A stretch of DNA of 64,000 bases from assembly GCA_934167095.1 (NCBI GenBank), contig CAKPKE010000004.1, positions 7,033 through 71,032 on the forward strand, given 5' to 3'. The DNA is from an uncultured Clostridia bacterium. GTDB taxonomy: Bacteria > Bacillota > Clostridia > TANB77 > CAG-508. Under the pieces are notes generated by a model. That model saw only the letters and a program-made list of their open reading frames with translations. It was not told the origin of the DNA and did no database searches. Of this stretch, positions 59,501-60,651 are shown in pieces. Every line of letters starts with the position of its first letter. Positions within the stretch are counted from its first letter, which is position 1. The position numbers and the translations under genes are program-made.

Positions 59501-59518
59501 GAAATAAATGCGGACAAT

Positions 59519-59682
59519 TTGACATAAAGCGAAATATGTTATATAATATAAATATAATCTATCCTATGTACAGGGAGTAATAAAGTGTACAATGTGTTAA
59601 ATTTCTGCAGTAATAATTAATATTGCAGAGAAAAATAATTAAATAAGATAAGACCAGTTTTACAAGCATGGAGGAATGAAAA
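59519..59682 (+). promoter_or_regulatory. Cassette 1 promoter (TTGACA-17-TATAAT) plus conserved ~135-nt leader
   Basis: TTGACA 59519-24, TATAAT 59542-47. Hairpin TGTACA(59567-72)/TGTACA(59586-91) with GGGAG in its loop. GTG mini-ORF 59585-59620. Hairpin CTGCAG/TTGCAG 59605-28. About 80-85% identical to 60060-60226. Confidence 0.65.
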
Positions 59683-59988
59683 ATGAATATGGTAATTAAA
59701 CTGATTTTTGTTTGTATTTTTCTTACGGCATTGCCTGGGATAGTTGCAATGGTGAGACAGGATTATTATGAAGTCATGAAGTACTCTGCAATCCTGGCTG
59801 GGCTGTTTATGACAGTAGCGATTATTGGATTGATAAACGGAAATTTTAATATCCTGTATCTAATACTATCTGTAAGTCTTTTGGCACAGGCGATCTATAT
59901 CAAAGTGCAATTTGATAATTATCAGGATGAAACGATAAGAAAGTATGAGGAAGAACTAGCAAAAAAGGAAAAACAAGAACAACAATAA
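59683..59988 (+). CDS. Small 3-TM membrane protein with charged C-terminal helix (cassette 1)
   Basis: GGAGGAA RBS, 101 aa. Codon usage is GC-richer than the surroundings (CTG, GGG, GCG, ACG, CAG). No family recognised. Confidence 0.6.
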   Translation: MNMVIKLIFVCIFLTALPGIVAMVRQDYYEVMKYSAILAGLFMTVAIIGLINGNFNILYLILSVSLLAQAIYIKVQFDNYQDETIRKYEEELAKKEKQEQQ

Positions 59989-60009
59989 CACAAGATACTG
60001 GTTTTATCA

Positions 60010-60046
60010 GGGAAAGGCGGGCAGAGATGCCCGTCATTCCCTTTTT
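60010..60046 (+). terminator. GC-rich rho-independent terminator between cassettes
   Basis: GGGAA-A-GGCGGGCA / TGCCCGTC-A-TTCCC stem, GAGA loop, TTTTT. Its GC content is atypical for this window. Confidence 0.85.
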
Positions 60047-60059
60047 AATATTGATAAAT

Positions 60060-60226
60060 TTGACATAATATGAAATGCAATGTATAATATAAGCGCAGTT
60101 TATCCTATGTACAGGGAGTAATAAAGTGTACAAGGTATTAAATTTTGCAATAACAATTATATTGCAAAGACAAAACTAATTAAATAAGACAAAACCAGTT
60201 TCGCAAGCACATGGAGGAAATAATAT
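60060..60226 (+). promoter_or_regulatory. Cassette 2 promoter (TTGACA-17-TATAAT) plus conserved leader
   Basis: TTGACA 60060-65, TATAAT 60083-88. The block TATCCTATGTACAGGGAGTAATAAAGTGTACA is identical to cassette 1. GTG mini-ORF 60126-60179. Hairpin TTGCAA/TTGCAA. Confidence 0.65.
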
Positions 60227-60598
60227 ATGTTGTATTATAATGGACTTGTGAAAGTATTAAATTTTTGCATCACTTTCATGACGATCCCATTGATTATGAA
60301 TGTAAGATCAAAGGACTATAAGAAAAAGACAGTGGTTTGGGCTATTCTAACTGTGCTTTATATGATTCTAGTTATGGCTGAGATAATAAAGTATGGAACC
60401 CCCGAGGTTTTGGATTGCGTAGCATTGATAATCTTCTCGGTGGCGACAGTAGGCGGAACATTACTTGTTAGAGCAGAAGAAAAAGAAGCTGAAAGAAAGT
60501 TCATGGAAAGACTAAAAAAGGATTACAAGGTTGTTTCCGTTGTGTTAGATGAAAATTCTATTTTGTTGACTAAATTAATTTTTTATAGTATTATATAA
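60227..60598 (+). CDS. Small 3-TM membrane protein with charged C-terminal helix (cassette 2); 3' end probably runs into host sequence
   Basis: GGAGGAA RBS, 123 aa, GC-richer codons. The last ~15 codons overlap a TTGACT-17-TATTAT promoter-like sequence upstream of the clpC-like gene. Confidence 0.55.
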   Translation: MLYYNGLVKVLNFCITFMTIPLIMNVRSKDYKKKTVVWAILTVLYMILVMAEIIKYGTPEVLDCVALIIFSVATVGGTLLVRAEEKEAERKFMERLKKDYKVVSVVLDENSILLTKLIFYSII

Positions 60599-60651
60599 AA
60601 GTACAAAAGTGGAATGTTTTAATAATACAAGATAGGAGAAACAAGCAAAAT

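Follow-up and report, generated by a model that had tools for sequence, protein, structure and literature searches.

We describe two tandem gene cassettes in a 64,000-nt stretch of DNA (the window) from an uncultured Clostridia bacterium (positions 7,033 to 71,032 of contig CAKPKE010000004.1, assembly GCA_934167095.1). The cassettes encode small membrane proteins, and their untranslated ends are shared between the two units and are predicted to pair with each other in the mRNA. They lie between comEC (Competence, DUF4131 and Lactamase_B domains) and the gene for a 775-aa Clp/ClpB-type double-AAA ATPase (clp below), which is followed by a CDP-alcohol phosphatidyltransferase gene. Farther upstream of comEC are fusA, tuf and an NlpC/P60 hydrolase gene, so the surroundings are core-genome territory. 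Coordinates are those of the window, and the cassette features are all on its plus strand.

Cassette layout and conserved ends

Each of the two units has a promoter, a leader, a strong Shine-Dalgarno sequence (SD) and a gene for a membrane protein with three predicted helices. Most of this was already marked in a preliminary description of the stretch, made from the sequence alone, and our scans reproduced it. The promoters, TTGACA-17-TATAAT at 59519-59547 (unit 1) and 60060-60088 (unit 2), match the consensus at 12 of 12 positions. Five perfect TTGACA-16/18-TATAAT sites occur in the window where 0.19 would be expected; therefore the organism does use such promoters. An SD reading GGAGGAA stands at 59670-59676 in cassette 1 and at 60213-60219 in cassette 2. 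The open reading frames (ORFs) that follow are of 101 aa (59683-59988, which we call type 1; three helices in the AlphaFold2 model) and 123 aa (60227-60598, type 2a).

The unit 1 promoter places the transcription start at about 59554, and measured from this inferred start the leader is about 129 nt long, not the roughly 135 nt first reported. The identity of 80-85% between the two leaders did hold: promoter plus leader aligns in gapless blocks that are 82-86% identical, with a mean column identity of 85%. Within it is the perfectly conserved 32-mer that had been pointed out, TATCCTATGTACAGGGAGTAATAAAGTGTACA, exact at 59560-59591 and 60101-60132. These are its only copies in the window, none being expected by chance, and it is unchanged in every strain contig that covers that stretch.

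The window has a single terminator at this locus, an intrinsic one in unit 1 (60010-60046) with a G+C-rich stem and a T run; its core stem is at 60016-60035, and the stem is extended in folds. Comparison with intact units from other strains (contigs L014, L016 and L098) revealed that a unit also has a conserved 3′ module, consisting of the last few codons (...QQ and stop), about 10 nt, the sequence ACUGGUUUU(A/G)UC and then a G+C-rich terminator. Identity between units 1 and 2 of one strain is 75-85% in the 5′ modules, depending on the alignment, 48% in the nucleotides of the coding sequences and 86% in the 3′ modules. The untranslated ends are thus far better conserved than the gene between them. 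Promoter and leader comparison supports the earlier view of self-promoted cassettes with a conserved leader. We would extend that view, as one part of the tentative reading of the mRNA architecture given below, to an autonomous single-gene expression module with a sigma-A-type promoter, a 5′ untranslated region (UTR) of about 129 nt, an SD, a gene, a short 3′UTR and a terminator.

The preliminary description could not see the conserved 3′ module, nor that unit 2 of the window is a deletion derivative. Alignment with the three intact contigs places the junction of a 94-nt deletion at 60560/60561. The deletion took the last 12 codons of unit 2 (ITDVSEDAGKQQ), the stop codon, the 3′ arm described below and the terminator. 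As a result the second ORF enters the clp promoter and ends in 11 residues of read-through (LLTKLIFYSII); the promoter-like site of clp, TTGACT-17-TATTAT at 60566-60594, found by promoter scan and alignment, lies inside this new tail. That the ORF runs into the clp promoter region had been noticed correctly, and the deletion is the cause. Unit 2 of the window, having neither 3′ arm nor terminator, reads into the clp gene. The same deletion allele occurs in at least five other contigs.

The two cassette proteins are distant paralogues (26% identical, E 9e-6). The AlphaFold2 model of the cassette 1 protein, built on a shallow alignment, has helices at residues 2-24, 28-51 and 57-100 with a predicted local distance difference test score (pLDDT) of 86.7, and the third helix extends into the charged tail. 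The model thus agrees with the earlier assignment of three transmembrane segments and a charged C-terminal helix. Searches of the proteins against Pfam, NCBIfam, PHROGs and PADLOC gave only sub-threshold, composition-driven matches. A profile search of PDB sequences gave as best hit acetylcholine-receptor transmembrane helices at E = 0.2, and Foldseek of the AlphaFold2 model against PDB gave only generic helical bundles (E ≥ 0.6). The earlier suggestion that the proteins could be immunity, toxin or holin-like factors is speculative. The predicted helices fit the description of class I holins (about 95-130 aa, three transmembrane helices, charged C-terminal tail), which is a generic one. The best PHROG holin match had E = 0.12, and no phage genes adjoin the cassettes, whose neighbors are comEC and clp.

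The cassettes had been called foreign in composition. This is borne out at third codon positions, where the G+C content (GC3) is 0.337 in cassette 1 and 0.358 in cassette 2, whereas 39 long window ORFs have 0.154±0.024 (z = 7.5 and 8.4 for the two cassettes). It is not borne out for total G+C, merely 1.2-1.5 standard deviations above the window ORFs, and the excess of GC-rich codons is strong in cassette 1 only.

Predicted long-range helix, hairpins and mini-ORFs

A predicted long-range helix between the leader and the 3′UTR was first seen as an inverted repeat in the window sequence. Its 5′ arm in unit 1 (GAUAAGACCAGU, 59647-59658) pairs with a 3′ arm (ACUGGUUUUAUC, 59997-60008) that abuts the terminator, as judged from folds, covariation and a shuffle test. 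In type 2 units the 5′ arm GACAAAACCAGU pairs with ACUGGUUUUGUC through 12 perfect Watson-Crick pairs. The unit 2 5′ arm of the window (60188-60199) is of this sequence and has lost its own 3′ partner to the deletion; it is still complementary to the 3′ arm of unit 1. The predicted helix is 12 bp long in every full-length variant and is part of the minimum-free-energy fold of six of the seven full-length mRNAs. Its pair probability is 0.83 in the unit 1 mRNA of the window, and ranges from 0.55 to 1.00 across the seven variants.

The substitutions among the five helix haplotypes keep the pairing. One double compensatory change (U-A to C-G) separates the type 2 helix from the type 1 helix, and four further transitions all give G-U in the sense RNA, never A-C. 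The single mismatch found is in a terminal pair, in one contig (L017). A run of 12 pairs between leader and 3′UTR, counting Watson-Crick and G-U pairs, arises in about 1% of dinucleotide shuffles, and one of 12 Watson-Crick pairs in none of 2000. Whole mRNAs fold better than their shuffles, with z = -3.0 in unit 1 and z = -5.7 in type 2b. The predicted folds leave the SD mostly unpaired in type 1 mRNAs (probability 0.8-0.99), while in type 2 mRNAs a local 9-bp clamp partly encloses the SD and the AUG. We regard the predicted 12-bp helix between 5′UTR and 3′UTR, which the preliminary description missed, as the best-supported RNA element of the locus. Another pairing considered for the 3′UTR, a local hairpin (CUG...CAG), was rejected as not conserved in type 2.

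Two hairpins are predicted in the leader folds of both units. The 5′-proximal one, H1 (59567-59591 in unit 1; 60108-60132, within the second copy of the 32-mer, in unit 2), has a UGUACA stem and a 13-nt loop that holds an SD-like GGGAG (59573-59577), and the motif reported earlier, a TGTACA/TGTACA hairpin presenting GGGAG, is present at both units. TGTACA-N13-TGTACA occurs at these two places only in the window. H1 appears in most leader and full-mRNA folds, the exception being the minimum-energy fold of L100. The second hairpin, H2 (59602-59631, 10-11 bp, in unit 1; 60144-60168 in unit 2), had been reported to differ between the units by compensatory changes, and does so. When its pairs were tabulated by script, because MAFFT misplaces gaps in the 3′ arm, all 10 pairs were kept in three haplotypes with no non-pairs; one change is a compensatory double (C-G to U-A), and two positions vary between G-U and A-U. 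The unit 2 leader taken alone folds no better than shuffles (z = -0.13). An anti-SD role for UAUCCUA at the start of the 32-mer, with 4 bp to the SD by eye, was dropped since no fold uses it.

A GTG start 7 nt downstream of GGGAG opens a mini-ORF in each unit; the coordinates and translations given previously were reproduced. Mini-ORF 1 (59585-59620) has 11 codons, (V/fM)YNVLNFCSNN*, and mini-ORF 2 (60126-60179) has 17, (V/fM)YKVLNFAITIILQRQN*. An indel shifts the frame so that it is not common to the two units past codon 7, and the stop codon lies in the H2 loop in unit 1 and 15 nt beyond H2 in unit 2. Since both the indel and the displaced stop leave H2 intact, what selection kept would be the hairpin and not the peptide; the sequence comparison indicates selection on RNA rather than peptide. 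The VLNFC string had been said to recur at the start of the second protein. It is indeed present in type 2a, mini-ORF 2 (YKVLNFAIT) resembling residues 8-17 (KVLNFCIT). The resemblance goes only weakly beyond chance, its score being matched by 7 of 1000 shuffles in this one of five comparisons, and in the four others it is weak or absent.

Strain distribution, recombination and neighbors

We found the locus in about 120 gut-metagenome contigs of one species, of which, by cluster listings, about 60 have type 1, 14 type 2a and 46 type 2b. Protein searches gave near-identical matches only, all from assemblies of human-gut metagenomes in ENA and Logan, Hadza samples among them. The flanks are the same in all recovered contigs, with comEC (591 + 193 aa) before and the 775-aa ATPase gene after. 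Three arrangements are distinguished by the spacing from comEC to clp: type 1 alone (650-655 nt), type 2b alone (716 nt), and type 1 followed by type 2a as in the window (1166-1263 nt). Flanking genes differ by about 1-2% between strains (synonymous divergence, pS, 0.02-0.08; nonsynonymous divergence, pN, 0.002-0.015; about 0-8 differences per 150 nt), which assigns the strains to one species. That species is not among the GTDB representatives; its best match for the ComEC C-terminus is 59% identical and comes from an uncultured Clostridia metagenome-assembled genome.

Outside this species the cassettes were not found. The nearest available relatives have no cassette, leader or homologue. When leader, 3′UTR and proteins were compared with the rest of the window and with 80 comEC loci from other species (blastn, nhmmer and tblastn), only short matches at chance level came up. 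A HMMER profile search (filter-only) of 1.84 billion cluster representatives returned two clusters, both from this locus. The 21-mer core of the leader was absent from GTDB species representatives, from JGI metagenomes and from IMG/VR, the last of which also lacked the 3′ module. A degenerate H1 pattern matched nine times in JGI metagenomes, always in unrelated satellite-like or random sequence. The whole region gave no blastn match to phages, and to plasmids one 47-nt AT-rich chance match (Enterococcus plasmids). The locus is accessory, species-restricted and strain-variable. The preliminary description had named a conserved single-copy core locus as the alternative to its view; the locus is not one, being absent from the nearest relatives and variable in copy number. 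Its proposal of horizontal acquisition fared less well, as no donor was found, nor any homologue among the 1.84 billion representatives or in the DNA collections that we scanned.

Divergence between type 2a and type 2b genes is far greater than in the flanks (pS 0.295, pN 0.156, omega 0.47) and includes in-frame indels; the omega value and these indels support the type 2 ORFs as really coding. Between L016 and L098 the leaders are identical from the 32-mer through the start codon. Type 1 alleles vary chiefly in the charged tail (14 nonsynonymous against 3 synonymous differences). These comparisons show that the coding cores diverge quickly and are alleles specific to strains; the orphan family to which they belong is restricted to a single uncultured, low-GC species of gut Clostridia. 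Their allele pattern would suit a role at the cell envelope that differs from strain to strain (exclusion, immunity or recognition, for example), given two allele classes only 26% identical, raised protein divergence, atypical GC3 and a site of accessory insertion.

Recombinant arrangements were also found. L098 and its kin have the unit 1 promoter joined to the unit 2 leader, the switch falling inside the 32-mer, and L001 has a type 1 gene with a terminal-type 3′ arm. The single-cassette haplotypes look like the expected product of homologous recombination between repeated 5′ or 3′ modules. The reverse route is possible, in which transformation using the conserved arms could add or swap cassettes.

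Several strains vary in expression signals. The cassette -35 box is TTAACA instead of TTGACA in L001-L003, a GCAAT duplication gives a 22-nt spacer in the unit 2 promoter of L016 and L017, and six type 2b contigs have GGAGTAA as SD in place of GGAGGAA. The stretches concerned are L001 5829-5880, L016 502-545 and L099 330-340. To judge by their sequences, these variants look like a recurrent weakening of cassette expression. Beside the cassettes, nt 150-300 of clp (60802-60951) show 5-8 differences per 150 nt between strains against 0-5 elsewhere in the gene; in the single stretch for which this was measured, most of the excess is synonymous. This divergent block may be a small recombination tract.

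The neighborhood has further features of its own. In two relatives a hicA/hicB pair directly follows comEC (L020 5465-6060 and L021 6628-7223; Pfam HicA_toxin E 1.8e-8, HicB E 3.3e-14), which suggests that in this group small accessory modules tend to gather in the space after comEC. A membrane-anchored protein of about 196-199 aa, ending ...LEDFE or ...ENFE, is encoded directly after comEC and on the same strand in relatives (L018 6778-7377, plus strand; L020 6146-6745, plus strand). In the present species it is found about 4 kb downstream on the opposite strand (63678-63983, minus strand), and because of this difference the cassettes can be placed at a break in gene order. The Clp/ClpB-type ATPase begins with a short CxxC...CxxC segment (MLCSICKEKPAV...GYCMKCAKEHG; 60652-60770) that no Pfam family covers, and its AAA domains begin near residue 160.

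comEC is itself split: after the 591-aa ORF the metallo-beta-lactamase domain goes on in an ORF of the +1 frame (58907-58965, junction at about 58917-58930). The junction reads GAC CAT GTT C GGA GGC, and the zero-frame codons there are CGG AGG, probably rare arginine codons in a genome with GC3 of about 0.15. The split is the same in every strain contig. The nearest relative (59% identical) has it at the same position (L018 5995-6010, CAT GTA GGG C GGA ATT), and the more distant relatives L020 and L021 have comEC unsplit. From sequence, the split is a candidate for a conserved +1 programmed frameshift, or else for a conserved split gene.

Interpretation and known analogues

The reading that we favor, tentatively, is that the conserved untranslated modules form an mRNA of the type of Bacillus subtilis hbs and act in stability or processing. 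In this scheme the 5′-proximal H1 would display the SD-like GGGAG, with GUG 7 nt on, and serve as a ribosome-docking 5′ stabilizer, whether or not the mini-ORF is translated. H2 would come next, and the 12-nt leader segment would then pair with the 3′UTR directly before the terminator, closing the coding region into a loop. By analogy with hbs, the loop would limit access of RNase Y and RNase J1 and thereby set the half-life and processing of the mRNA. Ligand sensing would be an unlikely task for such modules. Incidentally, the same modules would be the homology arms for loss, gain and exchange of cassettes. We infer the start and end of transcription, the pairing in vivo and the link to the RNases.

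Several observations weigh against this reading. H1 and the 32-mer are invariant and so offer no covariation in favor of a role as RNA. The 33-nt identity could be a gene-conversion tract, and the L098 crossover falls exactly there; by our own estimate, an identity run this long has a chance of about 0.04 at about 82% identity. All sequences come from one species and two unit lineages, with one double change per helix (H2 and long-range), so that very few independent events stand behind the covariation. The minimum-energy fold of L100, which is the most frequent type 1 haplotype, does not include the long-range helix (probability 0.55). Neither 3′ arm nor terminator is present in unit 2 of the window strain and of at least five further contigs, which makes the helix dispensable for that cassette. 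What we give as transcription start, 3′ end and pairing is predicted throughout, and the likeness to hbs is one of architecture, without sequence homology.

Small hydrophobic products, highly structured mRNAs, a long-distance 5′-3′ helix and tandem, strain-variable copies also bring to mind type I toxin loci such as hok/sok and aapA1/IsoA1, which share a hydrophobic product, a structured mRNA with a long-distance 5′-3′ interaction and multiple strain-variable chromosomal copies. The cassettes would then encode toxic membrane proteins from mRNAs kept stable but poorly translated by 5′-3′ fold-back, with a putative RNA antitoxin. In Helicobacter pylori aapA1, the fold of the full-length mRNA blocks translation until 3′ processing (PMC5416894). 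The hicA/hicB pair at the same spot in relatives, the 9-bp clamp over SD and AUG in type 2 mRNAs and the independent expression-lowering variants (the TTAACA box, the 22-nt spacer, the GGAGTAA SD and the 94-nt deletion) would all fit. We nevertheless consider it rather unlikely. Described type I toxins have about 20-60 aa, whereas the proteins here have 101-124 aa (2-4 times as long) and three helices. No convincing gene for an antisense RNA turned up: on the minus strand just one promoter-like site is conserved, which agrees with the consensus at 9 of 12 positions and points away from the unit, and the same strand has no terminator. The helix does not hide the SD of type 1 mRNAs, which is predicted to be accessible, the would-be toxin promoter is a perfect consensus, neither PADLOC nor Pfam gave matches, and several strains tolerate natural loss of 3′ arm and terminator, though with a C-terminus changed at the same time. 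Antisense candidates tried on the way were rejected: TGTACA-16-TATATT (9 of 12) scores no better than shuffles and faces outward, and the minus-strand ORFs 59559-59669 and 59900-60133 overlap promoter and terminator and have no support. A broader version, which we hold to be about as improbable, makes the locus a chromosomal slot for idiomorphic small membrane proteins. It would have two anciently diverged allele classes under frequency-dependent selection (phage or bacteriocin exclusion, or kin recognition) and a portable UTR pair whose fold-back locks a potentially toxic mRNA and supplies exchange arms for transformation; the locus would then in effect be a relative of type I toxin loci that has long proteins and no classical antisense gene.

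An evolutionary leftover, with the leader a relic of an older gene start joined to the cassette and the ends alike through gene conversion or recombination, draws on the resemblance of mini-ORF 2 to type 2a, on the coincidence of the 33-nt identity with a crossover and on the existence of recombinant haplotypes. This is unlikely, however: that resemblance is weak or absent in the four other comparisons, and both helices stay paired through all substitutions but one, two double changes included, which conversion alone does not predict. The leaders moreover differ by 15-25% outside the 32-mer and so were not recently homogenized, yet they are far more alike than the genes. Perfect invariance beyond the needs of an RNA stem would suit protein binding, either to a DNA operator (two palindromic TGTACA sites 19 bp apart at about +14 to +38, a motif unique in the window) or by a CsrA-type repressor of translation, since GUACAGGGA in H1 matches the first 9 of 12 positions of the consensus RUACARGGAUGU obtained by SELEX (PMC7652899), with GGA in the hairpin loop and a second GGA in the SD. 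We think this quite unlikely, as the cassettes have no regulator gene next to them, about 97 nt separate the two GGA sites and the motif has no further copy in the 64 kb. The leader-peptide attenuator or novel riboswitch proposed in the preliminary description, with mini-ORF translation or a ligand toggling two folds, can point to the well-placed SD and GTG in both units, to the conserved hairpins and to the lack of a known family that explains the leader. On the last point the description was right, as Rfam 15 at a permissive threshold gave nothing better than E = 4 in 59300-60800. (No Rfam family reached its gathering score in the entire window, though the fusA-tuf region is included.) The proposal itself now seems very unlikely: neither a terminator nor a U run lies in the leader, and no alternative fold masks the SD, which is predicted to be accessible in type 1; the mini-ORF loses its frame after codon 7 and its stop is not conserved; and the unit 2 leader folds like its shuffles. 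Most improbable is a DNA-level switch in which the 12-bp inverted repeats around SD and gene, perfect for type 2 and matching at 11 of 12 positions for type 1, serve as invertase sites for phase variation. More than 40 contigs with flanks all have the gene in the same orientation, no recombinase gene lies within ±6 kb, and the substitutions that give G-U in sense RNA are mismatches in DNA. Mobile cassette systems at large (integron cassettes, invertons) were rejected for want of a flanking recombinase, and the rearrangements fit homologous recombination in the repeats.

If the helix of the hbs-type reading is real, it would be a covariation-backed natural addition to the very few bacterial mRNAs that pair both ends (hbs, icaR, hok and aapA1), here from an uncultured gut anaerobe, and it would suggest that hairpins, long-range helix and strong SD, arranged as in hbs, form an expression module that can be reused and are not the peculiarity of one gene. 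If it is not, the finding shrinks to a strain-variable orphan gene pair. In either case the locus is a clean case of non-coding ends conserved far beyond the gene that they flank. Here alternative membrane-protein alleles that have diverged strongly segregate in one species, a pattern that is usually a mark of antagonism with phages or competitors, and the proteins are therefore candidates for strain-level ecology in the human gut.

Three known mRNAs share parts of the proposed architecture. The cry3A mRNA of Bacillus thuringiensis has a 129-nt leader in which an SD-like sequence near the 5′ end, STAB-SD, blocks RNase J1 (Agaisse and Lereclus, 1996, summarized in PMC4113751) and binds the 30S subunit (PMC4113751). 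GGGAG here is similarly placed, the inferred start being about 20 nt away and the true SD about 97 nt downstream. It differs in sitting in a hairpin loop and in being followed, 7 nt on, by GUG and an ORF of 11 or 17 codons, so that it may really initiate translation. The icaR 3′UTR reportedly pairs with the SD itself, blocking translation, whereas the 5′ arm here is upstream of the SD. Pairing of 3′UTR and 5′UTR in this Staphylococcus aureus mRNA has been described (PMC3868564).

The closest likeness is to hbs, whose mRNA has two hairpins, hp1 and hp2, and a 14-nt segment just 3′ of hp2 that pairs just before the terminator (Braun, Durand and Condon, 2017; PMC5737220). Compensatory mutants established that this long-range pairing limits cleavage by RNase Y and thereby the entry of RNase J1 (PMC5737220). 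The cassettes likewise have a small single gene, a structured 5′UTR with two hairpins, a strong SD and a segment of comparable length (12 nt against 14) 3′ of the second hairpin that is predicted to pair just before the terminator (59647-59658 with 59997-60008 in unit 1). They differ in that a helix of 12 bp is situated 12 nt upstream of the SD, in that the product is an orphan membrane protein where that of hbs is a nucleoid protein, and in that the modules are duplicated and strain-variable.

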